A stretch of 41,411 nt of DNA, taken from NCBI GenBank assembly GCA_020348065.1, contig CP070742.1, positions 2,229,907 through 2,271,317 of the forward strand. The letters run 5' to 3'. This stretch comes from Candidatus Zixiibacteriota bacterium (lineage in GTDB: Bacteria; Zixibacteria; MSB-5A5; UBA10806). A program made the translations under genes and the position numbers. Under the pieces are notes generated by a model. The model did no database searches and had not been told where the DNA came from. It was given only the letters and a program-made list of their open reading frames with translations. This document shows positions 19,934-41,411 of this stretch, one piece after another. Within the stretch, counting starts at the first letter, position 1. The number at the start of each line of letters is the position of its first letter.

Positions 19934-20854
19934 TTACAGTCTTACCCGCATGGTGATACGGTGAGTATCGCTCAGGTTATTGCGGAAAATTACGTAGGCG
20001 TAATCGATATAATATATGCGGTAGGCAATACCTCCCCCCACGGCCAGGGAGCGGGAATCATAACCGAGGTTGTAGCCGCTTCTGAAGAACACGAAATTAT
20101 CGTAATTATATTCAGCGCCGAAATTAAGCTTGGAATCGCCGTCGCCCCATTTGGGCAGGATATAATCGGCGGCGAACAGGATGCCGTCCAAAGCGGATCC
20201 CGGAGCGCCCCGATAGGAAACTCCCAGCCTGAATTCCCTGGGCAGGTCGTATGATTTGGATATGAACTTCGGTTTTGTGCCCAGATTCCTGACGGCTGCA
20301 CCGAAGGCAATCTGAGGATCGAAGGTATAAAAAATCCCAAGGTCGGTTCCGAAAGCGCTGGCGCTTCCGTAATCAAGTTTCTCGTAGGCGAATTTGAGGG
20401 TATTTCCGATTGACCATCGAGGAGATGCCGGATAGGCCCAGAAAATAGAGAAGGCGAAATTATGTTCATCGAAGGTCCCCAGGGGTTCGCTCGAGGGATA
20501 ATCATCGCGACGCTCGAAGTCGGCAACCTGTCCGAGGCTCATATGCAAACCGAGGCGCATATTCCCCGAATGCGCCAAGGCCGATAACTGTTCTATGGAT
20601 GCCTCCTCAAGGTAAACCAGATGCGCGAAGGAGATTTCGCTGCCATTCATAACCCCTGCGGAAGCGGGATTGAAATACGGCGCGCCCACGTCACCGCTAA
20701 CCGCGGAAAAGGCCTCGCCCATGGCGGAGGCCCTGGAGGACGATCCGACAAGCAGGAATTCAAAAGAACTGCCGCCCACCTCCGCAAACGAGATGGAATA
20801 CAAAAGAAACAGAATTGCAAAAGTCTTCTTTATCATCTTCAATCTAAAAAACAA
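19934..20854 (-). CDS. outer-membrane beta-barrel protein, FadL/PorV-like (paralogue 2)
   Basis: Signal peptide. N-terminal motif RASAMGEAFSAVSGDVGAPYFNPASAG of the FadL/OMPP1/PorV type. Alternating hydrophobic beta-strand pattern. Aromatic C-terminus. Confidence 0.55.
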   Translation of the reverse strand: MFFRLKMIKKTFAILFLLYSISFAEVGGSSFEFLLVGSSSRASAMGEAFSAVSGDVGAPYFNPASAGVMNGSEISFAHLVYLEEASIEQLSALAHSGNMRLGLHMSLGQVADFERRDDYPSSEPLGTFDEHNFAFSIFWAYPASPRWSIGNTLKFAYEKLDYGSASAFGTDLGIFYTFDPQIAFGAAVRNLGTKPKFISKSYDLPREFRLGVSYRGAPGSALDGILFAADYILPKWGDGDSKLNFGAEYNYDNFVFFRSGYNLGYDSRSLAVGGGIAYRIYYIDYAYVIFRNNLSDTHRITMRVRL

Positions 20855-21830
20855 ACCCCAGGGTAAAAAGGTGCCCGGCCGACGTTCCCTCGCGTCCTAC
20901 AAGATAAGCATAATCGAGGCTTAATGATATATTTTTTATTTCCTGGATCAGCGACGCTCCGAATGCGGGATTTTTTCTATCGATACCTATTCGCAAACCG
21001 GCGACGCGGACATCCTCCTCGATTTCAATATATGTATCTTCCTCGTATTCGTCTTCTACCTGTCGAACGGTTTTTCTGGTATACCATAATTCCGCGCCGG
21101 CCCTGAATTTGAGTTCCCCTTTATCGCTGGTTTCGATTTCCGCGGCTGATATAATTTTATCATCGACAAAATAACCCGCCGCCCCGAATTTCATTACGAT
21201 CGGAAACTGTTCCTCATAGGTTGTGCCCCGGCTCCAGTATTCGCCGCCGTTCCATTGATGTTTCGAGCCTATATTCTGAAATACGGCGGCAAGTGAGACA
21301 AATTTGTGCGGTTTGGAGACCGCACCTAAATCCATGCCGACGGTGAAACTTTGAAGATCATCGAATTTTTCCTGGATATATCGAAGTTTACCGCCGAAAG
21401 AGAACATTTCCGATAAGGCCTTACCAAAGGATAGCTCGAAAGCGTCACTGCTGTTGCCGACCTCACCCAGGATTTGCCTGGATTGTCCTCTCATGGGAAC
21501 ATCAGAAACTCCGAAATTCAACCAGCTGGCGGCCATAGCGGCCTCATTCCTGATAGGGAACGCGACGGCGACATGGCCGAGATGCCTGTCCAGCGACAGA
21601 GATTTGTAGCTGAATCCCGCCATGGTTTTGGGGATAAAACCCAATCCCGCCGGATTATAATAGACGGCGTCGATACCCTCAGCTACCGCGGTGAAGGCGC
21701 CGCCCATACCGAGAGCCCTTGCGCCTATCCCGTTTCTCAAAAAAGCTCCGGCATATCCGGCATAGTCTCCCGAAAGGGCGACCGATGATGCCGATAAAAG
21801 TATGACGATTATTGCCAACGTTCTTCTCAT
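20844..21830 (-). CDS. outer-membrane beta-barrel protein, FadL/PorV-like (paralogue 1)
   Basis: Signal peptide. ARALGMGGAFTAVAEGIDAVYYNPAGLG motif. Ends ...FTLGFVF. Overlaps the downstream paralogue by 11 nt. Confidence 0.55.
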   Translation of the reverse strand: MRRTLAIIVILLSASSVALSGDYAGYAGAFLRNGIGARALGMGGAFTAVAEGIDAVYYNPAGLGFIPKTMAGFSYKSLSLDRHLGHVAVAFPIRNEAAMAASWLNFGVSDVPMRGQSRQILGEVGNSSDAFELSFGKALSEMFSFGGKLRYIQEKFDDLQSFTVGMDLGAVSKPHKFVSLAAVFQNIGSKHQWNGGEYWSRGTTYEEQFPIVMKFGAAGYFVDDKIISAAEIETSDKGELKFRAGAELWYTRKTVRQVEDEYEEDTYIEIEEDVRVAGLRIGIDRKNPAFGASLIQEIKNISLSLDYAYLVGREGTSAGHLFTLGFVF

Positions 21831-29109: not shown

Positions 29110-31800
29110 TTACCGCAATAAAACCATCCTGATAACCTCCGAAATATCAGAGGCTTTTATACGGCAGAAGTAAATTCCCGAGGGGCAATTTTGGGCATTC
29201 CAGGATATCCGGTAAAACCCGGGCTCCTGCACGCCGTCTTTTAAAACCTCGATCTCCTGTCCGAGTAGATTGTAAACGGCTATTCTGACATTGGATTTTT
29301 TCACAATCTCATAGTCGATTGTGGCGCTGGGATTGAATGGATTCGGATAGCTTTGAAAATATCCGATACTTTGAGGTAAATCGGTTTGATGTTCTTCGAC
29401 TACCCCGACATATTCCTCACCGAGATCCCCAAGGGCCTGCCCCGCGGCCGTGGTGGCCTGTTGTTGATTCATAAAATATAATGGAACATCAAACACTATA
29501 ATCTTGATTTCGTTGCCGAGGTGCCTGAAGCCCACCGGTTCGCCATGCAATCTGAAACTCCCACCGAAGGAAGAATTGTATGTGTACAGCCTTTCGGTGA
29601 CCGGTTCATCGACGAGGGGACTTAAGAAAGCATCCATTTTAAACATTCTATGATCGAATATCGGCACCTTTACGCTATCGATGGTCAGATCGGGATAGGC
29701 AGAAGGCATCAGAGACGTCGCGCTGATGAAATCCTGATTTGCGGGTTGAGATACGCCGAGAGAATCGGTTTTAAGATACTCCCTGAAAAAGCTCCCCTGA
29801 GGAAAGGTCGAGAATTCGGTGACCACGCCTCCAAAGCTTCCCGCCAGATTCCAGCCGCTTAAAAGGAGATTGCCGCCGTTGTCGAGGTATTTTTTCAATG
29901 CCGTGGTATCTTGAACGTGAGGGGCATTTACCCTGTCGCTATGATAAAATACAGCTGAAAATGGCGCGAAATGAGCATCTTGAATGAAAACATCAACAAG
30001 GGTACTGTCGGCGACGTCCCAATTGCCGCCGATATTAAATCCATCGACTATGGCAGCATAATAGTCATCAACCTCTTCATCCGTTGGTTGAAGCGGCCCG
30101 CCGGAACCATCTAACGTACCGTCAATTAGCAAAACACCAAGGTCGTGAGTAGCGAGTTGGCCATAACGGCTATCCGAAAATCGGCTTTCCTGTTCAAGGC
30201 TGTCAACGGCGGTTATATTGTAGGTGTAAAGATTATGCGGCTGAACCGTATTATCAAAGTAAGAGGAGGCGGGATGATGGACAATCTGGATTAGATGCGG
30301 ATTGGTCTGGCCGGGGGGAATACGAAAAACGTTGTAACAATCTATATCGAGTTCGGTATTTGGAATCCACGTAAGCTGTATCCCGGTTTGCCGAGATTCG
30401 GTTTCAAACCCGGCCGGAACCGCGGGGATACTGGAGGGTGTAAATGAGATCTCCTCTGAGAATACCGATTCATTATCGTCCGTATCATATGCGGAAATGC
30501 TCAGGTAGACGAGCTGGCCTTCGGTCAGGCTATCCAGGACAAATTGACTGACATCACCGGCATCAATGACGTCGGAGTAAAAAAGCTCGCCCTGCGGCCG
30601 CACCGCGATTCTATAGCCGGCGAAATCGGGTTCGGTCTGGATATAGGGCCAGGTAAGGATGACGCTGGTGCCATTACCGGCATTCACGGCCTGAAGGTAG
30701 CCCGGCGGCGCGGGTGCGAGGGCAAGGCTGGCGATTCCGGCAATATTAATCCTTGCGATATTGGCCATATAACCGGCATTAGTATTATAATAAGACAAGG
30801 TATCATGGGCGTTATGTTGCCTGCCGTTATTGCCGCTGCCATCGCCGTTCTCATGCGCCTCGGTAAATCGGACTCCGGCGTAACCGCGATTGTAGAAAGG
30901 AACGTGATCGCCGGAGCGCCCCGGTCGATCCAATGCCGGAATCAGGTTTACCGTGAAGCCCTGGAGGTATTCCATCGCCTTCAATTTCATATACCTGGAT
31001 AATTGACGGGAGATACCGGTTTCCGGCGTTCCCGAAAAATGCCTCGCGGACAGGCTATCAACGATAACCGGCTCTCCTGGCGGGCAAGCCGGGTTTTCGC
31101 AACCCTCGATATTTCCCACCACGTCGTTGGTGATAACCGCGCCGATGTCCAGCGATTGTGATTGAGCCCATTGCGCGTAGGCGGTGCTGCCGTAAAGCCC
31201 CTGATCTTCTCCCGTAACAACCATTACTATTACCGTGGACTCGAACGGATAGCGGCTCATGATCCGCGCTATCTCCATGGCGATAGCAGTACCGCTGCCG
31301 TCATCGTTGGCCGAGGGGGCGAACGAGCTGGCGTCGCAGACGTCATTGGTGCGACTGTCTATATGCCCCATGGTTAAAAAGTAGCGGTTCGGAGTAGCCG
31401 TCCCGGGCAGGGTAGCGAGCATATTGCGATGTTCCCCGTATATTCCACATACGGTGGCGTTAAAGGTAAAGTAGCCTGGCTGGAGTTCATACGTGGCCGA
31501 ATCGACGGCATAGGCTTCAAATTGATCATATACCCAGCGTCTGGCCGCCCCGAGGCCGGTACTCGAAGAAAGCGTATCGGAGTTGGTATGACGGGTATAG
31601 AAACCGACCAAAGTATCGACGCCGGCGAGAATTCTTTCAGCAGATACAGAATCGATCATCTCCTCAATAGCCTCGTTGGTCAGGATTCTACTGGAGAAAT
31701 TCCAGGAATCGGCGGTGTCGTATTCCTGGGTTTTTCCCATAACGGAGAATAACGTCAGGAGCAAGGATGTTGTAAAAATGATGCCGGATAGGCTTTTCAT
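29110..31800 (-). CDS. secreted M28-family zinc aminopeptidase with two fibronectin-III-like domains and a T9SS-type C-terminal sorting domain
   Basis: Signal peptide. M28 motifs MGHIDSR, NDDGSGTAIAMEIARI and VTGEDQGLYGS. FN3-like segments (LTWPY...AYDTDDNESVFSEEISF and LTWIPN...ITAVDSLEQESRFS). C-terminal YPNPFNPSATIDYEI...IAVYNLLGQEI...GIYFCRI...MVLLR. Confidence 0.85.
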   Translation of the reverse strand: MKSLSGIIFTTSLLLTLFSVMGKTQEYDTADSWNFSSRILTNEAIEEMIDSVSAERILAGVDTLVGFYTRHTNSDTLSSSTGLGAARRWVYDQFEAYAVDSATYELQPGYFTFNATVCGIYGEHRNMLATLPGTATPNRYFLTMGHIDSRTNDVCDASSFAPSANDDGSGTAIAMEIARIMSRYPFESTVIVMVVTGEDQGLYGSTAYAQWAQSQSLDIGAVITNDVVGNIEGCENPACPPGEPVIVDSLSARHFSGTPETGISRQLSRYMKLKAMEYLQGFTVNLIPALDRPGRSGDHVPFYNRGYAGVRFTEAHENGDGSGNNGRQHNAHDTLSYYNTNAGYMANIARINIAGIASLALAPAPPGYLQAVNAGNGTSVILTWPYIQTEPDFAGYRIAVRPQGELFYSDVIDAGDVSQFVLDSLTEGQLVYLSISAYDTDDNESVFSEEISFTPSSIPAVPAGFETESRQTGIQLTWIPNTELDIDCYNVFRIPPGQTNPHLIQIVHHPASSYFDNTVQPHNLYTYNITAVDSLEQESRFSDSRYGQLATHDLGVLLIDGTLDGSGGPLQPTDEEVDDYYAAIVDGFNIGGNWDVADSTLVDVFIQDAHFAPFSAVFYHSDRVNAPHVQDTTALKKYLDNGGNLLLSGWNLAGSFGGVVTEFSTFPQGSFFREYLKTDSLGVSQPANQDFISATSLMPSAYPDLTIDSVKVPIFDHRMFKMDAFLSPLVDEPVTERLYTYNSSFGGSFRLHGEPVGFRHLGNEIKIIVFDVPLYFMNQQQATTAAGQALGDLGEEYVGVVEEHQTDLPQSIGYFQSYPNPFNPSATIDYEIVKKSNVRIAVYNLLGQEIEVLKDGVQEPGFYRISWNAQNCPSGIYFCRIKASDISEVIRMVLLR

Positions 31801-32005: not shown

Positions 32006-32830
32006 ATGAAATTAAGCTTATTAACGTGCTTTTTGGCAGGCATATTAGTTCTCGCCAATTGCTCCGGCGACCGGGCTGTGGTTGATCGAATAATATCGGA
32101 AAATGACCTTGTAAATTCAGCAGAATTATCCGGAGTACCGGGTACAGAAGATCCACTCGATAACGGCCAAAATGCATTTACGCCTCCATATCAAATAATG
32201 ATAACATACAATATTCTCGGGGATACTTGCGGCATCTATTGCGAGATATTGGTATGCGCGACACCATTAGATTTTTACGCCAGGCACTATACAAATCCGG
32301 GGATGGAGGTTAATTTTGAGGTGAATCCAGAAAGTCTGGCTGCAATCAATAATACCGCCTATACAAACCAGTGGGGGGCGGCGTTGGCCAAACTGGTATA
32401 TCCTTCATTCCATACTTTTGAGGAAATACAACTGATAGTTTCGTGCGGCCCTGCTGCCGACACTGTTTTAATCCTCCTTCCTATTTGTCAGGGCGAATTA
32501 GAAATGAGCGCTGATCCCGTTAGGCTCTGGGTTGAACAGCCCGGGGCATATGACACTACCACAATAGCCTGTCGATTAGTAGGTATTTTGGGTAATCCTT
32601 TCGGAGGCGGATTGATTGTTTTCGTACCATTAGTAGCTGGGGAAATCTGTGGCCCCACATCTGCTTACACAGATGATCAAGGGTGGGCCTACACGCAATA
32701 TAGAATTCGCTACGAGGATATCCCGAATGGCAATAACGACCCGAATTCTATTTATACGTGGGTTAGAGCCTCGTTATTTGGAGATCCCGATATGGAAGAG
32801 GAAATCAGCCTTTATTGCGCCAGACCTTAA
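32006..32830 (+). CDS. putative lipoprotein, function unknown
   Basis: Lipobox LVLANC SGD. AGGGGAGGG Shine-Dalgarno upstream. 274 aa, Cys-containing, no recognised domain. Confidence 0.5.
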   Translation: MKLSLLTCFLAGILVLANCSGDRAVVDRIISENDLVNSAELSGVPGTEDPLDNGQNAFTPPYQIMITYNILGDTCGIYCEILVCATPLDFYARHYTNPGMEVNFEVNPESLAAINNTAYTNQWGAALAKLVYPSFHTFEEIQLIVSCGPAADTVLILLPICQGELEMSADPVRLWVEQPGAYDTTTIACRLVGILGNPFGGGLIVFVPLVAGEICGPTSAYTDDQGWAYTQYRIRYEDIPNGNNDPNSIYTWVRASLFGDPDMEEEISLYCARP

Positions 32831-33074: not shown

Positions 33075-33662
33075 TTATCTATTCAAGACTCTTTTTTCTT
33101 TGCTCAACACTTTCGGTTTCACATTCGAGACCGCGGGGGATTTGATAATTTCACCCGGCGCGGATGTCACTATCAAGCCGCCGGGCGGGCAATCTCCACA
33201 GGGCATCGGTCCTGCGCCGCCTTTGAAATAGCTTACACCGTAGGTGATATCAAGACCGTTGTACGAGCAGCTGGCGTTAACATCACCGCAGTAGAAAAAC
33301 GCGTCGCAGGGAGGAATAGGACAGGAACCGTACGGACAAATCGGATCACTGCCGCCCTTGAAGTAACTGACGCCGTAGGTGATATCCAGACCGTTATAGT
33401 TGTCGCTGCCGTTGACATCGCCGACTATGTAATCACAACCTCCCACGGCGCCCGCGCCGACCCAATAGCCGGATTCGACGATATAGCCGGGCGATGAGGA
33501 GGTTCCCGTAATCGGTTGGCCAGCGGTGCCGTTAACTCTGTAGTTTGTCGATGACATCTCTCCCCCACCCGACGCTATGACGTACCAATCGATTTGGTAG
33601 TTCTGGGCTATGGCAACCGATGTCATCAAAAGTATTAAGAGTAAGGCATTGATGATCTTCAT
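33075..33662 (-). CDS. small secreted protein with two dockerin-like Ca-binding repeats and Cys-rich spacers
   Basis: Signal peptide (start taken at MKIINALLL). Duplicated GDVNGSDNYNGLDITYGVSYFKGG and GDVNASCSYNGLDITYGVSYFKGG, each followed by CP..PPCD or CGDCPPGG. AGAGAGGAGAA Shine-Dalgarno. Confidence 0.5.
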   Translation of the reverse strand: MKIINALLLILLMTSVAIAQNYQIDWYVIASGGGEMSSTNYRVNGTAGQPITGTSSSPGYIVESGYWVGAGAVGGCDYIVGDVNGSDNYNGLDITYGVSYFKGGSDPICPYGSCPIPPCDAFFYCGDVNASCSYNGLDITYGVSYFKGGAGPMPCGDCPPGGLIVTSAPGEIIKSPAVSNVKPKVLSKEKRVLNR

Positions 33663-33772
33663 TTGTTCTCCTCTCTCTTTTTTAAAGATATTTATTTCCA
33701 TTTACTTTGCAAACATTTTTTTCAGGTTTTTGGCTTAACGATCGGTTCTCTATCGGACAATTGCCGGATCGT

Positions 33773-33796
33773 AACCCGACTTATAAGTCAGGAGCG
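33773..33796. repeat. intergenic hairpin (AACCCGACTT-ataa-GTCAGG), copy B of a motif shared with 36233-36277
   Basis: CCCGACTT and AAGTCAGG form an imperfect inverted repeat. It is followed 17 nt later by GGCGACAGCAC, the same 9-mer core found at 36294-36302. Confidence 0.4.
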
Positions 33797-33886
33797 GTCA
33801 GGCGACAGCACAACCTCTCTTTATAAATGAAATAATGAGACCGCTTCGTCGTCCCGCAAAAGGCGGGATTCCTCGCGATGACGGGT

Positions 33887-36148
33887 TCATCTGGTTCTCT
33901 CCAGTTCGGCGATCCTCCTTTCGAGTTCCGCGTTTTTGTCTTTCAGTTCGTTTATAATATTTATCATCTCTTTAATTCCGGCCAAAGCGATGCCGGACTG
34001 GTCCTGCGCGGATATATGCTCGTTATCCGTGCCAAGCCCAAACTGATTGTGAAAATCGGCAGCCATGGGGCCGATATGTTCAACGCTCTCATCCTCCGAT
34101 TTGTAGCTATAGCGGTTAATGGGAAGCCGTTCGATTTTATTTAATATCTCCTTACTATCCACCGGTTTGAGATTGCGTACGCCGTCGAGAGTCGTTATGG
34201 AAGACCAGGAGGATGCGCCGGGGGTCAGTTGAACGCCGGAAGTAAGATTGGCGTTGGTATAAAATTTTACCGCTCCGGTGGCCCTGACCAGAAACTGGTT
34301 GTTGCCCGATGACTGTACGGGTATGACCGCCGGTCCGACCGGGTAATCGGCCCATATGAAGTTATTGTTGTAATCGCACTGAGAACCGTATCCGCTCACA
34401 ATATTATACCAGCCGTTAACCGTATTGCCTGTACCGGCGACCAGATTAAGTTCTCCGTTATTCGCATTAGGGCCTAAAGTGATACCTTTATCGACCTGGA
34501 TATAGCCATGCGTATCTAACGATATGGTCGTATCTCCAGAAGAGGGGTCGATCAGATATACAAATCCGCCGGGAATGAAGGGGCTGGGCTCAAAGCCCAT
34601 GTATTTTCCTATATCGTCATACAGACCGACGCCACCCCCATCCGCACTAGTATAAACTTCAAATTTCACAGCATCCGATACGGGACTATACATTCTGAAT
34701 ATACCGCCGGGAGTAAAGGGCATGGGCTCAAGGCCTAAGTATCTGCCGATATCATCGTGTAAATTAATGGCTCCGCCTGTGGAATCGGCAGTAACCTCAA
34801 AAAGGGGATCGGTGATCTGATCACCGGAGCCGCCTGATTGCGGGGCGGCCATGGCGATGCTGGCGCCGTATTGGTCGGTGTTCATCTCCAGAAGCGGCTC
34901 GGCGGGCGGTTCCGGTTGCGGGTTGAACATTTTGATGCTCGCGCCGGATGAAGGCGAACCGCTAATAGCCAGAAGCTCCTGTTCAACATCCGAGGCGTAA
35001 TTAAATATATTCAACTCGCCACCTATATCACTACCGACCCTGAGATCCATGGCTTTGATTTCATTATGAGGAACCAGGCCCTCGCGGAACATGGTCATAT
35101 TAGCGCCGTCTGTAAACTGGGCCTGTATCTCTACTCTGCCCGAAAATGTCGGTTGAGCCGCATGTATTTTAATTCTACTGCTCGCAGTAGGATCAGTTGT
35201 CATTTCAAGCAAGGGGCCAACTTCGAGGCCGGAGAGATTATTCATTATAATGCTAGCATCCCCGCCGATCCCGCCATTCATTTCAATTAAGGAGTTTTCG
35301 TCGTCGCTGGGATCGATCAGTTTCATGGAGTTTCCTGCCGCCCCAATGAATACATCAAAGCCTACCTCATCATCGCTGGGATCGATTAATTTAAGGGAAG
35401 TTTCAAAACCGTCTGACTGCAAAACGCCTACAGGAACCTCATCGTCGCTGGGATCCATAAGTTTCAGGGAGTTACCTTCCCCTCCGATGAATACGTCAAA
35501 GCCCACCTTTTCATCGGTGGGATCCATCATTTTGAATGATGATTGAGCCGCGTCGGCGGACATCTCAATTGAGGGCATTTCAGGAGGATGCACCAATCTG
35601 AAATTAATAGAATTGGCTATCCCATCGGCCAGAATATTAATCCCAGGTCCCTCCGGGGGATGAGCCATTTTAACGCTGATTAAATCGGCAACAGCATCCG
35701 ATAGAATGCTGAAAGATGAATCGCCGTCAGCGTTTGTTAATACCATATACCCTTCATTGGTGATGATATCCCCCTGCATTCTTTGCGCGATTGCGCTGAA
35801 AGGAGCGGTTGCCATAGGAGCACGTGGCGACATGATCTCGTCGCCCACCATTATCTCCATGAAAAGCGGCCCATCCAGATTATCGAGATCCATCTCGAGA
35901 AAAACGTCGAAAAAGCCGTTATCGGTGAAGACATCGAAAAACGACTCCGTCCATACCGGAACGCCCCCGGTGGAATCGGAGTAGAACCGGAATTCCATAT
36001 CATAACTGCTGTCGGGCACCGGGTTGCCGGTGCTGTTGGCCAGGCGGGCCTGGTAGCTCATGTTCAGCGGTATTTGCGCTGAAGCTGTTAACGTCACGGT
36101 TGCGAAAATCAAAGCTGTCAGAATCACGGTTGTGGCTTTGCTTCGCAT
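33887..36148 (-). CDS. secreted phage-tail-fibre-like protein with a C-terminal Peptidase_S74-type intramolecular chaperone domain (paralogue A)
   Basis: Signal peptide. N-terminal domain MSYQARLANSTGNPVPDSSYDMEFRFY shared with the next gene. Internal ~25-aa repeats (DPSDDEVGFDVFIGAAGNSMKLI...) and duplicated ~40-aa units (YSPVSDAVKFEVYTSADGGGVGLYDDIGKYMGFEPSPFIPGG). C-terminal ...HIGPMAADF...IALAGIKEMINIINELKDKNAELERRIAELE is typical of the tail-spike/endosialidase chaperone domain. GGGAGGAAG Shine-Dalgarno. Confidence 0.7.
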   Translation of the reverse strand: MRSKATTVILTALIFATVTLTASAQIPLNMSYQARLANSTGNPVPDSSYDMEFRFYSDSTGGVPVWTESFFDVFTDNGFFDVFLEMDLDNLDGPLFMEIMVGDEIMSPRAPMATAPFSAIAQRMQGDIITNEGYMVLTNADGDSSFSILSDAVADLISVKMAHPPEGPGINILADGIANSINFRLVHPPEMPSIEMSADAAQSSFKMMDPTDEKVGFDVFIGGEGNSLKLMDPSDDEVPVGVLQSDGFETSLKLIDPSDDEVGFDVFIGAAGNSMKLIDPSDDENSLIEMNGGIGGDASIIMNNLSGLEVGPLLEMTTDPTASSRIKIHAAQPTFSGRVEIQAQFTDGANMTMFREGLVPHNEIKAMDLRVGSDIGGELNIFNYASDVEQELLAISGSPSSGASIKMFNPQPEPPAEPLLEMNTDQYGASIAMAAPQSGGSGDQITDPLFEVTADSTGGAINLHDDIGRYLGLEPMPFTPGGIFRMYSPVSDAVKFEVYTSADGGGVGLYDDIGKYMGFEPSPFIPGGFVYLIDPSSGDTTISLDTHGYIQVDKGITLGPNANNGELNLVAGTGNTVNGWYNIVSGYGSQCDYNNNFIWADYPVGPAVIPVQSSGNNQFLVRATGAVKFYTNANLTSGVQLTPGASSWSSITTLDGVRNLKPVDSKEILNKIERLPINRYSYKSEDESVEHIGPMAADFHNQFGLGTDNEHISAQDQSGIALAGIKEMINIINELKDKNAELERRIAELERTR

Positions 36149-36232
36149 AGCTTCCTCCCATTAATTAAGTTTGGTGTTTGGTAGTTTTATTTTGTTCTTT
36201 ATTTTCCTTTCCGTTTTATTTACGGCCCGGTG

Positions 36233-36277
36233 TCGGGTTTCTCTCCCCGACTAAAAGTCGGGGATTCGGAACCCGAC
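36233..36277. repeat. nested inverted repeat / extended hairpin in the intergenic region, copy A
   Basis: Outer arms GTCGGGTT and AACCCGAC flank an inner perfect hairpin CCCCGACT-aaa-AGTCGGGG. A GCCGACAGCAC motif follows 14 nt later. Confidence 0.45.
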
Positions 36278-36310
36278 CTACATTGAAATTTGCCGACAGC
36301 ACGAATTGTT

Positions 36311-39300
36311 TTATCTGTTTTCCAGTTCGGCGATTCTGTTTTCGAGTTCCGCGTTTTTTATCTTCAATTCTTCAATAATGTCAATCAATTCCTTCACTCC
36401 CGCCAAAGCTACGCCCGCCACATCGCCGGCGGCGAGGTAATGATCTTCGCGTTGGCCGTCGGATTCGCGGATGTCGCCGACATCGAAAGCGTCGACGAAT
36501 TCCTCCGCATAGGGACCTATATGGCGTTCGTCGGAATCGATGAAATTCCAGGATTCCACGTTCAGGTTGGAGATTTTATTTAGCAGATCAGTACCATCCA
36601 GGCGCAGACCATTTTCTTTGAATGACCTGCTGGAGCCGTTGGTCCAGACACCGCCCGTGGTGACACGGGCGCCGTTGCCGTTGCTTGTGCCTGTACCAAT
36701 ATGTATTGGATATAAGATTCCTCCGTCGTTATCGTCGCGATTGATACCGAGAAAACCCGAGTTGTCTCCTTCGAAAAAAGCGGCTCTATAACTCGTATCG
36801 ATATAAACTCCTTTTCCGAACGCCATTGAGTAGTCTGCCTTGGTTGTTAGGTTACACTGATATCCGCCCGGGACGGCGGAATTGTCTCCATCGATAGTGT
36901 TATCCCAACCGCCGCCGATAGCGCTGCTAACGCCAGCCACAGAATTTTCGCCTCCGCCTCCAATGGCACTGTAAACGCCGGTGACTATATTATAATATCC
37001 GCCCGAAATGGTGCTTCCTGTCTGGTTTGCAAAATTAATAAAACCTCCGCCTACTGTGCTGTAGTTGCCGCTGGAGGTGTTAGTCATCCCCCCGCCGACG
37101 GTTGCATGAGCGTAGCTTGCGGTATTGTTATCTCCGCCTCCGACCGTGGTGGAAATACCGGTTGCGTCATTGGAAGTTCCTCCGCCTACCGTTGCGTAAT
37201 CACCGCTGGCCGTGTTTTCCCGGCCACCGCATACAGAAGAAAATTGTGCTGTTGCCGAATTTTCATAGCCCCCGCCGACATAGGCCGCGGTGTCTTCATG
37301 GGCATCGCCGGCAATATTGTGGTACCCGGCAGATACTCCGCCCCAAAAAGCCTCAACGGTATCGGCCCCGCCTCCGCCGATAGTACCGCCATAATTGGTC
37401 ACCGTGTTGGTAGTTCCACCTCCGATAGTGCTGCTTTGACCTGTCGCAGAATTAGCGATACCGCCTCCTATTGTACTATACGAGTAACTGACGGTATTAT
37501 TTCTTCCTCCGGATATTGTGGTCCATGACGATTGTGCGTTGTTGTTTTGACCGCCTCCAATATTACTGGCGGTTCCGATAGCATTATTATCATATCCGCC
37601 GCCAATTGTGCTATACGTACCACTGGCATCGTTATATCGACCTCCACCGACAGCGGCGTGATCATTGCTGGCTGTGTTATCTTCTCCCCCTGAAATAACG
37701 GAACGGTCACCGTGAATGTTATTATTGCGGCCTGCTATAAATGATTGTTGTCCACTGTTAAAATTGCCCGGACCTATTGTTGCCTTGCCAGTTGTGACTA
37801 AATTTTCATCATCAAAGCTAATATTGCCATATGTACTGGTAATCCGGTTGTTTGAGCCATCAATAACTATTGCGTTCCCGCTCTCAATAGTACCGGTAGA
37901 TTTAATATTGCCATAAACATGCAATCTCTCGGATGGTATAGGCGTACCGATTCCTACGTTGCCTGAAACGCCGGAGTATTGGTCGTTACCCGAAATCACC
38001 CAGTCGGAATCGCTGCCACCGGAGGGGAGTTGCCAGGTGCCCGTACCTGAGCCATCAGAGGTCAGTACATATCCGTTCGAAGCTCCAGTGGGCAATGCGA
38101 AACCGTCCATTCTCGCCGTCCCGGCCACATGCAATTTCGCCAAAGGGTTAGGTATTCCTATACCGACGTTGGCATTGCTGTTAAGAATCGTAACCGCCTC
38201 CTGGCCGGAAGCTTCGGTATCGAGCTGTAAATCGCCGCCGGCATTTGTTCTGACGAAAGCTTTTTGATCGTCGTCCTGCGAAAACCTCAAATAAGCTTCA
38301 CCCGAAAGCGGCGCGTCAATCCTGATATCGGGACTGGCGTCCTCAACTTCCAGCTTTGAAACGGGCGTACTTGTCCCGATGCCCACATTGCCCGTAACAC
38401 CGGAATACATATTCGTATCCACAATCACCCAATCGGAATCGCTCCCGCCCGGTGCAGCCTGCCAGGTGCCGGTTCCCGACCCATCGGAAGTCAACACATA
38501 GCCGTCGGAGGCGCTGGTCGGCATCTTGAAACCGTCCATTTTTGCCGAGCCTACAACGTCCAATTTCTCGGTTGGCGTAGATGTTCCGATACCAACACTA
38601 TCCTCGAAATAGCCTTTGCCGCCGAAATATCCGGCCCAGCCGGCAGCTTCATCGATCCGGATACCGTTTCCGCCGGCAGATTCAATTCTGATGCCGTCGC
38701 CATTCGCGCTGGTTACCCGCAATCCATGGTTGCCGGCATGCTCCACCCACAAAGCGCATACGTTCTGGCTGAAGAACCGCGCTGCGCGAGACGACCCGTA
38801 TTGCTCGACATTGAGGATCGGTAGAGATTCCGATCCCGTTACATGCAATTTATTTACCGGGCCGGAAGTGCCTATGCCGACTTTGTCATAGGACGTTTCC
38901 AGATGAACATTAAGACCATCGTCAACCCAACCTCCGCCGGCCGCGGCGTAATCGCTGGTATCGGAGCGGGCGGAATAACCAACCATAGTGATTTTTTGGC
39001 GTGGTGTGAGTATCTCTGAGTCAACCTCAAGCTCCAGCCAGTAATCCTCGTCGAACGGGATATTTATGTTGCTGAATATAGCTGTAAAATAGCCCGCTGA
39101 TGTGGTACAGGGCAGAATCTCCGACCATTCGGAGGTACCGCCGCTTTCGGCATCATAAATCCGGAATGTAACGCTATAGACACTGTCGATCACCGGATTG
39201 CCGCCGGAGTCTTTCAGGATGCCCTGATAGGTCATGGCGCGGGGAACCGAGGTGATAATGTTTGGTATTGATCCATTACCCGAAAGAATACTTGATTCCT

Positions 39301-39385
39301 GGGCGTGAGCCAGAGATGCGGCGGTTACGGCCACCAAAAGGATAGCTATAACCGTGAAGCTCAAACGTGCATTTTTAAATGACAT
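36311..39385 (-). CDS. secreted phage-tail-fibre-like protein with Gly-rich beta-helix repeats and a C-terminal Peptidase_S74-type intramolecular chaperone domain (paralogue B)
   Basis: Signal peptide. Shared N-terminal domain AMTYQGILKDSGGNPVIDSVYSVTFRIY. Repeated tail-fibre motif VGIGTSTPxxKLxV, five copies. Duplicated GYVLTSDGSGTGTWQ...GGSDSDWVI module. About 280 aa of GGGxxNxAxGxxSTIGGG repeats. C-terminal SSRSFKEN...ERHIGPYAEEF...VALAGVKELIDIIEELKIKNAELENRIAELENR. AAAGGAGGAAAAATG Shine-Dalgarno. Confidence 0.72.
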   Translation of the reverse strand: MSFKNARLSFTVIAILLVAVTAASLAHAQESSILSGNGSIPNIITSVPRAMTYQGILKDSGGNPVIDSVYSVTFRIYDAESGGTSEWSEILPCTTSAGYFTAIFSNINIPFDEDYWLELEVDSEILTPRQKITMVGYSARSDTSDYAAAGGGWVDDGLNVHLETSYDKVGIGTSGPVNKLHVTGSESLPILNVEQYGSSRAARFFSQNVCALWVEHAGNHGLRVTSANGDGIRIESAGGNGIRIDEAAGWAGYFGGKGYFEDSVGIGTSTPTEKLDVVGSAKMDGFKMPTSASDGYVLTSDGSGTGTWQAAPGGSDSDWVIVDTNMYSGVTGNVGIGTSTPVSKLEVEDASPDIRIDAPLSGEAYLRFSQDDDQKAFVRTNAGGDLQLDTEASGQEAVTILNSNANVGIGIPNPLAKLHVAGTARMDGFALPTGASNGYVLTSDGSGTGTWQLPSGGSDSDWVISGNDQYSGVSGNVGIGTPIPSERLHVYGNIKSTGTIESGNAIVIDGSNNRITSTYGNISFDDENLVTTGKATIGPGNFNSGQQSFIAGRNNNIHGDRSVISGGEDNTASNDHAAVGGGRYNDASGTYSTIGGGYDNNAIGTASNIGGGQNNNAQSSWTTISGGRNNTVSYSYSTIGGGIANSATGQSSTIGGGTTNTVTNYGGTIGGGGADTVEAFWGGVSAGYHNIAGDAHEDTAAYVGGGYENSATAQFSSVCGGRENTASGDYATVGGGTSNDATGISTTVGGGDNNTASYAHATVGGGMTNTSSGNYSTVGGGFINFANQTGSTISGGYYNIVTGVYSAIGGGGENSVAGVSSAIGGGWDNTIDGDNSAVPGGYQCNLTTKADYSMAFGKGVYIDTSYRAAFFEGDNSGFLGINRDDNDGGILYPIHIGTGTSNGNGARVTTGGVWTNGSSRSFKENGLRLDGTDLLNKISNLNVESWNFIDSDERHIGPYAEEFVDAFDVGDIRESDGQREDHYLAAGDVAGVALAGVKELIDIIEELKIKNAELENRIAELENR

Positions 39386-39580
39386 TTTTCCTCCTTTTTG
39401 GAGTATTTTAGAGATTTATTCTATTTTTGAAGTACAGCCTGGCCATTTTGTGGTGTCAATCTTATTAATGATAATAAATATGGATTATTATGTCAATTGC
39501 AAAGATGATTTATGGAGGATTTTATTAATATTTACGAATTTACTGTTTTAAATCGGGAATCCGGATATAACCAGGGCTTA

Positions 39581-39927: not shown

Positions 39928-41411
39928 TTATTTTAACAGGATCATTTTCCTGGTTTCCGCCATATCCCCCGCCCGCAAGCGGTAGAAATAGACGCCGCTG
40001 GAGAGTTTTGAGGCATCGAAAGTAACAGTGTGAACGCCCGCCTGTCTGTAGTCATCAATCAAAGTTTCAACCTGCCGGCCGAGGAGGTCGTATATGGCTA
40101 ATTGCACATTTTGCGGTTCGGGTAATACGAATTTAACAATCGTCCTGGCGTTAAAGGGGTTGGGGTAGTTTCGGGAAAGGAAGATACGGTTCGGCAATTT
40201 TATCGGCGAATTATCTATTCCGACGATAGTCGAATCTCCGCCTCGTTCCAGGCCCGGATCGCCGTAGAGGTTAAAAGTAAATAAATCCCAGTATTCGGCA
40301 AAATGATTCCAATTATATGTATAACTACAATAAAATTCCGAATTGTAAAGCGCTTCTCCCACCTTTTCGGGTCCGCCGGGACCGTTTAACAGGTAATGGT
40401 TAAATTCATAGCAATGTTGTTCTCCACCGCCGGTAGATACCCATACCAATCGCGTTCCGCTGACGATGCCGGCGGAGGCGCCGAATGAGGGTTTGGTCAA
40501 CAGGTCGATTCCGAGATTGCCCCAGGCATTCGGTTCCGGGTAGCCAACCATACAGGACAGCGCGAACAGGATTGATGGATAATCATCATCGAGGTTTGAA
40601 TTAATGCTGATAAAATCGGGCCACCACATCTCGTTAGGATCATTTGTTTCCGGAATGCCGTCCCCATCGTCCCACGACCATATTTTTTGCGCGACTCCGC
40701 TGGACCAACCGTGGGCATACCAATTTACCATCCCGTATCGACCATTTCGCCAATCCCCGATAAACGCCGCTTCGCTCAACGCCAGCCAATTATGGACTGA
40801 AGGCGCCAGGCCCTGCCGTTCGCTATAATGAGTCACGGTCATGCCGTTCATAATATCAGTTTCGATCTGATTCATAAGTACGGCCCCGTCCACCAGATCC
40901 CGTCCGCTGTGGTTCTCGTTGGCATAAAATGCTATAGCCCCGGCATTCAGCACCCGATTTTTCCAGTCACCGGTGTTCATCTCGTACGCGGCAAGTTTAT
41001 TAAGGGCATATGTTATCCGGTTTGTGTTGCTTGTAGGAATTCTGCCGACATAAACCTCGGCCAGAAAATCAGGTGTATCCTGACCGTACTCGCCGCGGAA
41101 ACCGTCGCCATCCGAATCCCAGGATAGATAATCAGGAGCCGAGAGGTCGGCGTAGTAATAGTCGGTGGGTACATCGCCGCTCCAGGGCCATGACGATGGA
41201 TCCCCGGCGCCATTGGCGTGGTTATCCGGATTAGGATAACAGTAGCGCATGGGGATTGTCGCGATATCGCCTACCAGAAGCACGTACTCGACACCCCATA
41301 ATCCGTAGTAGTCTATGAGGAAATTTCGGATCTGCTCGGCGAGGTCGTCACCGGGCTGAACGGTTATCTCGATATCGGTGGTCAGGACGATTCTAACGTT
41401 ATATCCCAGGT
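39928..41411 (-). CDS. gingipain-like peptidase C25 family protein with a T9SS-type C-terminal sorting domain (5' end lies beyond the window)
   Basis: The reading frame stays open upstream of the annotated Met to the window edge (...EQIRNFLIDYYGLWGVEYVLLVGDIATIP, the C25 N-terminal pattern). Candidate His and Cys sites WYAHGWSSG and LFALSCMVGYPE. C-terminal YPNPFNARTIVKFVLPEPQNVQLAIYDLLGRQVETL...GVYFYRLRAGDMAETRKMILLK is a textbook Por secretion tail. Confidence 0.7.
   Translation of the reverse strand, partial: LGYNVRIVLTTDIEITVQPGDDLAEQIRNFLIDYYGLWGVEYVLLVGDIATIPMRYCYPNPDNHANGAGDPSSWPWSGDVPTDYYYADLSAPDYLSWDSDGDGFRGEYGQDTPDFLAEVYVGRIPTSNTNRITYALNKLAAYEMNTGDWKNRVLNAGAIAFYANENHSGRDLVDGAVLMNQIETDIMNGMTVTHYSERQGLAPSVHNWLALSEAAFIGDWRNGRYGMVNWYAHGWSSGVAQKIWSWDDGDGIPETNDPNEMWWPDFISINSNLDDDYPSILFALSCMVGYPEPNAWGNLGIDLLTKPSFGASAGIVSGTRLVWVSTGGGEQHCYEFNHYLLNGPGGPEKVGEALYNSEFYCSYTYNWNHFAEYWDLFTFNLYGDPGLERGGDSTIVGIDNSPIKLPNRIFLSRNYPNPFNARTIVKFVLPEPQNVQLAIYDLLGRQVETLIDDYRQAGVHTVTFDASKLSSGVYFYRLRAGDMAETRKMILLK

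Follow-up and report, generated by a model that had tools for sequence, protein, structure and literature searches.

The window analysed here, a stretch of 41,411 nucleotides on contig CP070742.1 of a Candidatus Zixiibacteriota bacterium (assembly GCA_020348065.1, positions 2,229,907 to 2,271,317 of the forward strand), contains at 33075..39385 three minus-strand genes for secreted proteins, called A (36311..39385, 1024 amino acids, aa), B (33887..36148, 753 aa) and C (33075..33662, 195 aa), just as an earlier note on this sequence had described them. A and B are fibre proteins whose architecture was defined in 2024 as that of the mosaic adhesive trimer (MAT) fibre superfamily of Bdellovibrio bacteriovorus (Caulton et al., 2024; PMC10769870), and they are best classed as new, remote MAT-type members. 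C is a Cn-dockerin protein and belongs to a family of small secreted proteins, marked by a conserved N-terminal module named Cn, whose genes follow fibre genes in several phyla. MAT-type fibres were already known; the partner family was absent from the domain libraries (Pfam, NCBIfam) and the literature that we searched. We think it rather likely that A and B are produced by the bacterium itself, exported by Sec and displayed as trimeric surface fibres, with C as their dedicated anchoring partner. The earlier note had likewise proposed a host-encoded surface fibre or adhesin rather than a prophage remnant, which the chromosomal context and the cellular N-terminal domain support, surface location and adhesion being presumed; it had missed that the S74 dyad of B is lost and that C, with its dockerin, accompanies such fibres as a conserved partner. 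All features of A, B and C given below lie on the minus strand of the window.

A and B resemble each other at their ends only, and their middles are unrelated, as had been claimed. The N-terminal match (31% identity, E 2e-13) outlines a shared domain of about 100 aa, the N-domain, at aa 48-148 of A (38942..39244) and aa 27-134 of B (35747..36070); the homology had been recognised before, with its extent put at about 50 aa. A, B and all aligned homologues start with a basic n-region, a hydrophobic core and an AxA-type site, read from the sequence as a signal peptide (in A aa 1-28, 39302..39385, ending in SLAHA before QE). The N-domain was modelled confidently as a beta-sandwich, with a predicted local distance difference test (pLDDT) score of 84.5. 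No Pfam family matches it, and no specific homologue was found in the PDB, as is also stated for the MAT N-domain (Caulton et al., 2024). When 24 N-domains were scanned against NCBIfam, 21 matched Bdello_MAT_N and nothing else (best E 8.3e-10); this Bdellovibrio-specific model is the only curated one that touches the domain. In an exhaustive profile search, 78,747 cluster representatives had the N-domain at E<=1e-3, and 35,551 had it at E<=1e-10; its place is nearly always just behind a signal peptide, and some proteins carry two to four copies or an internal copy. Looking up the cluster members yielded hardly any names or taxa for these proteins. With about 79,000 clusters and no Pfam family, it is among the commonest unannotated domains of secreted proteins in metagenomes, and because it is this common, such fibres would be a general bacterial surface device and not a speciality of predators.

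In phages the N-domain is almost absent: no PHROG family matches it, tblastn gave no match in 50,697 phage genomes, and relatives are encoded at just 8 loci among 2.9 million IMG/VR contigs. One of these loci, L083 (9932..11512), is a rare phage-borne case of this cellular domain, a genuine prophage with a head protease, a major head protein and an integrase, in which a 526-aa protein with a truncated N-domain adjoins the integrase gene. Because the N-domain is not a phage domain, A and B are read as chimeric proteins that, like the MAT proteins, join an N-domain of cellular type to a C-terminal chaperone of phage type; because it is very common, almost absent from phages and homologous to MAT_N, we regard these fibres as additional cases of the MAT kind.

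In the published description, a MAT protein starts with a signal peptide and a conserved, beta-rich N-domain (about 130 aa), continues as a trimeric shaft and ends either in an S74 domain with an SDxxxK motif or in another tip; the proteins are displayed on the surface of the predator, where the N-domain presumably binds a surface element whose identity is still open (Caulton et al., 2024). A and B have in common with them the signal peptide followed by a beta-rich N-domain (remote sequence homology), long mosaic shafts, S74-or-other tips, multicopy chromosomal genes and the exchange of tips between paralogues. They differ in coming from another phylum, Zixibacteria (of the Fibrobacteres, Chlorobi and Bacteroidetes, FCB, group), without a known predatory lifestyle, in an N-domain too divergent for the NCBIfam cut-off, in the catalytically dead S74 domain of one paralogue (B), and in the conserved downstream Cn partner gene, a partner of which the accessible part of the MAT description makes no mention.

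The shaft of A begins with five VGIGTxxPxxKLxV modules (aa 167-495, 37901..38887) and continues with 14 STIGGG-type units (aa 562-841, 36863..37702); the two kinds of repeat had both been pointed out in one of the two proteins, and the latter proved homologous to the beta-roll of the UspA1 head (PDB 3pr7), which aligns with residues 562-713 of A at E 1e-19. The UspA1-type beta-roll is a trimer-only structure that serves adhesion. Such head-type repeats are common to A and the trimeric autotransporter adhesins UspA1 and YadA; unlike these, A lacks a C-terminal barrel translocator, with no Pfam match to a YadA-type beta-barrel, and its trimerisation would be expected from the S74 domain in which it ends (aa 913-1024, 36314..36649). 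In B, a signal peptide and the N-domain are followed by four acidic DPSDDE-type repeats (aa 203-290, 35279..35542), a duplicated module of about 45 aa (DDIGxYxGxEPxPFxPGG, aa 465 and 511, 34484..34756) and an S74-type domain without the catalytic dyad (aa 644-752, 33893..34219); acidic repeats and duplicated modules had been noted for the other of the two proteins. No relatives of B were found among PDB sequences.

The C-termini of A and B match each other at 40% identity (E 7e-21), and both pass Pfam Peptidase_S74 (PF13884; 26.2 and 26.4 bits, respectively, with a gathering cut-off of 22 bits), which bears out the S74-type domain predicted for each. In an alignment of the C-termini of 53 homologues, whose canonical motif is SDxxxK, A has SSRSFK in the consensus columns, with S918 as the putative nucleophile and K923 as the putative base of an autocleavage motif SSRSFKEN (36611..36634), whereas B and every close orthologue have neither the Ser nor the Lys of the dyad (Thr/Val in B; Pro/Arg, Pro/Leu and similar in its orthologues). 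Ser...Lys is kept in 35 of the 45 fibre-linked S74 domains, often as GSSRxFKENF, the variant of A; a few have Thr...Lys, and both residues were lost in the B clade. The cleavage motif that had been claimed for both proteins thus holds for A and not for B. Since A has Ser918 and Lys923 and B has neither, A probably cuts off its S74 chaperone, and B probably does not cleave, its domain being kept at the level of the fold with peptidase activity unlikely. S74 domains can therefore persist without the protease dyad, as in the B clade, which implies that the folding role is separable from the cleavage role. The S74 chaperones of phage endosialidase and of the T5 pb1 tail fibre have, like A, a C-terminal Ser...Lys motif and a coiled-coil end, and A is expected, like these phage domains, to be a self-cutting trimerisation chaperone. 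Unlike phage S74 proteins, the S74 domains of A and B sit on secreted cellular proteins and not on virion proteins, and A deviates from canonical SDxxxK in having Ser for Asp after the nucleophile (SSRxFK).

The longest open reading frame (ORF) of gene C is 33075..33701; its real start is placed at 33662, because GAGAGAGGAG precedes this start and the resulting length of 195 aa matches all orthologues. After a signal peptide, C has the conserved Cn module of about 50 aa (aa 20-70, 33453..33605; consensus YxIDWYVIASGGGxxSSxNYxxNGTxGQPxxGxSSSxxYxxESGFWVG), a dockerin fold of two Cys-bracketed Ca-loop/helix repeats (aa 73-162, 33177..33446; GDVNxSxSYNGLDITYGVxYFKGG, two copies between Cys) and a basic tail rich in Pro and Lys (aa 163-195, 33078..33176). 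The structure model supports the two dockerin-like repeats that had been noted in this protein: both Ca-binding loop and helix repeats are present with a dockerin fold, the repeat region has a pLDDT of 77-91, and the fold matches are dockerins only. The suggested search with Pfam PF00404 gave a divided outcome, with no match of C itself at E<=1 and matches of 7 of the 37 family members (best E 4.2e-7); the distant small partner proteins described below have clear Dockerin_1 matches. For all its high conservation, the Cn module gave a poor model when taken by itself (pLDDT about 40), as would be expected if it folds on a partner.

Like the type I dockerins of cellulosomes (PF00404), C has two Ca-loop and helix repeats; unlike them, its dockerin sits on an enzyme-free protein of 195 aa with invariant Cys brackets and a basic tail after it, has no known cohesin partner, and occurs in an organism that is not cellulosomal. 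When reference genomes were scanned with the alignment of C, 264 relatives came up, all in Zixibacteria-type metagenome-assembled genomes (MAGs); most of them correspond only to the dockerin half, standing at the C-terminal end of some other protein. In the Zixibacteria genomes sampled (L005-L078, for instance CP070813.1 with more than 25 loci), the Cys-bracketed dockerin module ends more than 100 other ORFs, among them VCBS proteins, CarboxypepD_reg proteins and one protein of 3106 aa that carries the module twice. Zixibacteria look like having a large non-cellulosomal dockerin repertoire, and our literature search returned nothing on S74 combined with dockerin, nor on dockerins in Zixibacteria.

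The Cn module also resembles the N-terminus of PamT of the Candidate Phyla Radiation (CPR), which is predicted to be the tip subunit of the CPR Pam pilus and to accept a donor strand (bioRxiv 10.64898/2026.03.03.709456). All 37 C-family members matched the PamT model NF058579 (best E 2.5e-9). C is not a PamT, because it scores 25.7 bits against an equivalog cut-off of 240 and covers profile positions 11-77 of 241 only. PamT and C both combine a signal peptide with an N-terminal motif of about 55 aa and have a tail-fibre-like gene in the neighbourhood; a 'tail fibre-like' gene consistently adjoins pam operons (bioRxiv 10.64898/2026.03.03.709456). C differs in matching about a quarter of the model and in having a dockerin instead of the rest of the immunoglobulin-like domain, and its neighbourhoods listed here differ from pam operons in having no annotated Pam pilins or chaperones. 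In the pam operon of M. amalyticus, the gene between PamA (WP_260763287.1) and PamT (WP_260763289.1) was left undescribed (bioRxiv 10.64898/2026.03.03.709456).

The relation between C and the fibres was followed through gene order, with hidden Markov models of four modules (N-domain, Cn, dockerin half, S74). An N-domain or S74 gene stands immediately upstream on the same strand in 17 of 20 distinct Cn genes, and the three unpaired ones lie at a contig end, at a masked stretch and beside a convergent N-domain gene. By comparison, none of 118 dockerin-only genes directly follows an N-domain or S74 gene (Fisher p 5e-19 against the Cn genes). In an independent metagenome sample, a few loci of which overlap contigs seen before, 57 loci could be evaluated and 44 of them showed the pairing, the gap between the genes being -40 to +105 nucleotides; the 44 partners comprise 27 with the N-domain only, 14 with N-domain and S74, and 3 that are truncated. 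Distant fibres in other metagenomes are paired as well, their small protein consisting of Cn and a canonical dockerin, and one such fibre-Cn locus adjoins the dcw cell-division cluster. On Chloroflexi-type contigs, Cn-only proteins of about 90 aa directly follow N-domain proteins without S74. Because 27 partners have the N-domain only and some Cn proteins are free of a dockerin, it is the N-domain, and neither S74 nor the dockerin, that is the common denominator of the Cn partners. In arrays such as A-B-C, several fibres share one following Cn gene.

The Cn-only secreted proteins (L091 8001..8276, L093 3526..3804, and P0320, P0321, P0337, P0368 and P0371, all of Chloroflexi/Anaerolineae type) have the same kind of hydrophobic tail at the C-terminus, a conserved YRVYLPLVLR or similar, which may be a strand-donating or anchoring signal. 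At another locus of the window's own genome, P0135 (JSU85_15675, 192 aa) joins a partial A-type N-domain (...NLPFDEDYWLELEVGGE) directly to C-type sequence, continuing after the N-domain part with ISSTNY... and then a dockerin; it may be a deletion product of a fibre and its partner, or a natural fusion.

What the analysis shows is which domains A, B and C have, to what these are homologous, a setting free of phage genes and a conserved pairing of genes; on this basis we propose a model for the assembly of the fibres. A and B would be exported by Sec as products of the bacterium and not of a phage, and the C-terminal S74 domain would nucleate folding of the trimer. The N-terminal beta-sandwich would form the cell-proximal end, and the variable shaft and tip, in A including the UspA1-head-like beta-roll, would give binding specificity. 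The Ser918/Lys923 pair of A would then release the chaperone, while the S74 domain of B, its dyad being lost, most likely stays as a trimerisation cap. Cn, presumably tied in function to the N-domain, would engage the fibre at or near this domain, and the dockerin of C would most likely bind calcium and connect the complex with a cohesin-like receptor on the surface, which presumably also serves many other dockerin-tagged secreted proteins of Zixibacteria. An adaptor role for C is suggested because Cn pairs with the N-domain regardless of the fibre tip, because Cn is conserved and yet models poorly by itself, because the C-terminal module of Cn proteins differs between lineages, and because P0135 joins a partial A-type N-domain to C-type sequence. 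More tentatively, and as a possibility that we hold well short of even, Cn proteins in general may be the cell-side adaptor of MAT-type fibres in a cross-phylum two-component display system with an exchangeable anchor: Cn, a relative of the PamT N-terminus, would grip the N-domain and fold only in the complex, and the anchor would be a dockerin in Zixibacteria and other Gram-negatives or a hydrophobic YLPLV strand in Chloroflexi.

The small partner that is genetically linked to the N-domain across phyla is in either case a candidate for the anchor that the MAT work of 2024 left open, and, from its gene context, Cn may be the missing surface anchor of such fibres. Docking of the dockerin to a surface scaffold, if real, would mean that Zixibacteria possess a large dockerin display system of a non-cellulosomal kind, and if the two-component reading is true, a non-cellulosomal cohesin-dockerin scaffold would serve more than 100 proteins per set of genomes sampled.

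Several points weigh against the model. The N-domains of A and B score 17.5 and 15.4 bits against a cut-off of 60 bits for NF053851 (Bdello_MAT_N), and are remote relatives and not members of this Bdellovibrio subfamily. The window encodes components and cargo of the type IX secretion system (T9SS), and a Pfam scan found the T9SS sorting domain Por_Secre_tail in none of A, B and C, which are thus left without this C-terminal domain and without an assigned route across the outer membrane. Among the genes annotated around the fetched loci there is no cohesin, the whole genome not having been scanned for a cohesin-like receptor. The Fisher p overstates independence, because many of the counted loci come from related genomes, and the Cn partner is not obligatory, because an array of three fibres (L079) has no Cn gene. 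Co-divergence of Cn with the neighbouring N-domain was weak (Mantel r 0.20-0.24, p 0.013 at 0.24) and was treated as uninformative. The contact between Cn and the N-domain, like the anchoring role of C, is something that we infer from gene context. A predicted lipoprotein of 274 aa, convergent to gene C (32006..32830; LANC lipobox, no Pfam match), was considered as the receptor and rejected, as it recurs in the sister genome only among the fetched loci.

Phage tail-fibre assembly proteins such as Tfa and gp38 are encoded just downstream of fibre genes. The position of C mirrors this phage order of fibre and then chaperone, and C could instead be a secreted assembly factor or tip accessory of that kind; the tight coupling of Cn and fibre genes is equally compatible with such a role, and Cn resembles the N-terminus of a predicted tip subunit, PamT. 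We nevertheless find this unlikely, as S74 fibres bring their own chaperone, what all partner fibres share is solely the cell-proximal N-domain and not the tip, and a varying C-terminal module (dockerin or hydrophobic YLPLV tail) suits an adaptor better than a chaperone. The resemblance to PamT also bears on a further explanation, in which Cn and N-domain proteins are strand-complemented, Pam-like pilus subunits and the fibre is a cap or side-arm of the filament. It would account for the match of every C-family member to the PamT model, for the co-localisation of tail-fibre-like genes with pam operons around a predicted donor-strand acceptor, and for the strand-like YRVYLPLVLR tail of the Chloroflexi Cn-only proteins. 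The limited stretch of profile that is matched, at about 25 bits against 240, the lack of any annotated pilin or PapD-like chaperone in the neighbourhoods of the fetched loci, and the report of Pam pilins in CPR only (bioRxiv 10.64898/2026.03.03.709456) make it distinctly improbable.

Chance could also have placed C beside the fibres as one of many dockerin-tagged proteins of Zixibacteria, with no meaning in its position, seeing that the same module ends so many other ORFs in these genomes; the absence of dockerin-only genes after fibre genes, set against 17 of 20 Cn genes, and a pairing kept in other lineages and even without any dockerin leave this explanation very little room. An origin of the cluster as the tail-fibre module of a degraded prophage, tailocin or contractile injection system would be in line with its S74 domains, VGIGT tail-fibre motifs and weak PHROG tail-fibre matches, and with the partial N-domain protein in prophage L083. 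We regard it as scarcely credible. No capsid, terminase, portal, sheath, baseplate or integrase gene was found in the 41-kb window, in keeping with the phage-free setting described earlier, and the surroundings of homologues, viewed in ten other contexts, were equally free of such genes; both A and B have Sec signal peptides, and the N-domain is overwhelmingly cellular.

That MAT-type fibres such as A and B are mosaics is further illustrated by the complete sister genome CP070813.1, which has a longer fibre array between the same right-hand neighbours. Its order is a B-type C-terminal fragment, an orthologue of B (75% identity), a fibre of 855 aa in which the SSRRWK motif is intact and the middle is of its own kind, an orthologue of C (87% identity), a 604-aa protein that is 39% identical to A over its first 350 or so aa and has no S74 end, and a second C-type gene overlapping the stop of the 604-aa gene. 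The 855-aa fibre is a further paralogue with the same ends and another middle, of the kind for which the earlier note had recommended a search, and since paralogues and sister genomes keep the fibre ends and exchange middles and tips, its description of the middle as cassette-like is supported. The fragment, a 332-aa ORF just upstream of the B orthologue (L001 8857..9855), corresponds to the C-terminal 310 aa of B (58% identity) without signal peptide and N-domain; it could serve as a spare tip cassette or simply be a piece of a gene. Two non-S74 fibres, one of Zixibacteria (L001 15824..17638) and one of an Anaerolineae MAG (L093 2309..3529), have similar C-termini, FSYRVVAKRQGFEDRRLDY and FDYHVVAKRWGYEDVRLQE, which suggests a common non-S74 tip domain. 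In the long-contig MAG assemblies L009, L011 and L013, several fibre genes are split into abutting or overlapping N-domain and S74 ORFs, probably through frameshift errors or as pseudogenes.

The surroundings of the cluster are chromosomal, as are those of homologues in genomes both related and distant. Housekeeping genes of the window include those for IMP dehydrogenase, adenylosuccinate lyase, FeoAB, TruA, CbiQ, Ppx, an SPFH protein, a PurQ-like amidotransferase, phosphatidylserine decarboxylase, transaldolase and a rhodanese, together with a single tRNA-Val 15 kb from the cluster. G+C content does not flag the cluster as foreign, the sole rise being to 0.55 at 38-39 kb, inside gene A. Strong Shine-Dalgarno sites stand in front of genes A and B, as had been reported, and a sigma-70-like, promoter-like site lies upstream of A on the minus strand (39468..39496, TTGACA-17-TATCAT, 11/12, a consensus match only). 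The T9SS genes of the window encode PorV-like proteins and, as cargo, M28 and C25 peptidases with Por_Secre_tail; the two peptidase genes flank the cluster (29110..31800 and 39928..41283), and 12 kb away, at 19934..21830, stand two outer-membrane genes of the PorV-like or UPF0164 kind.

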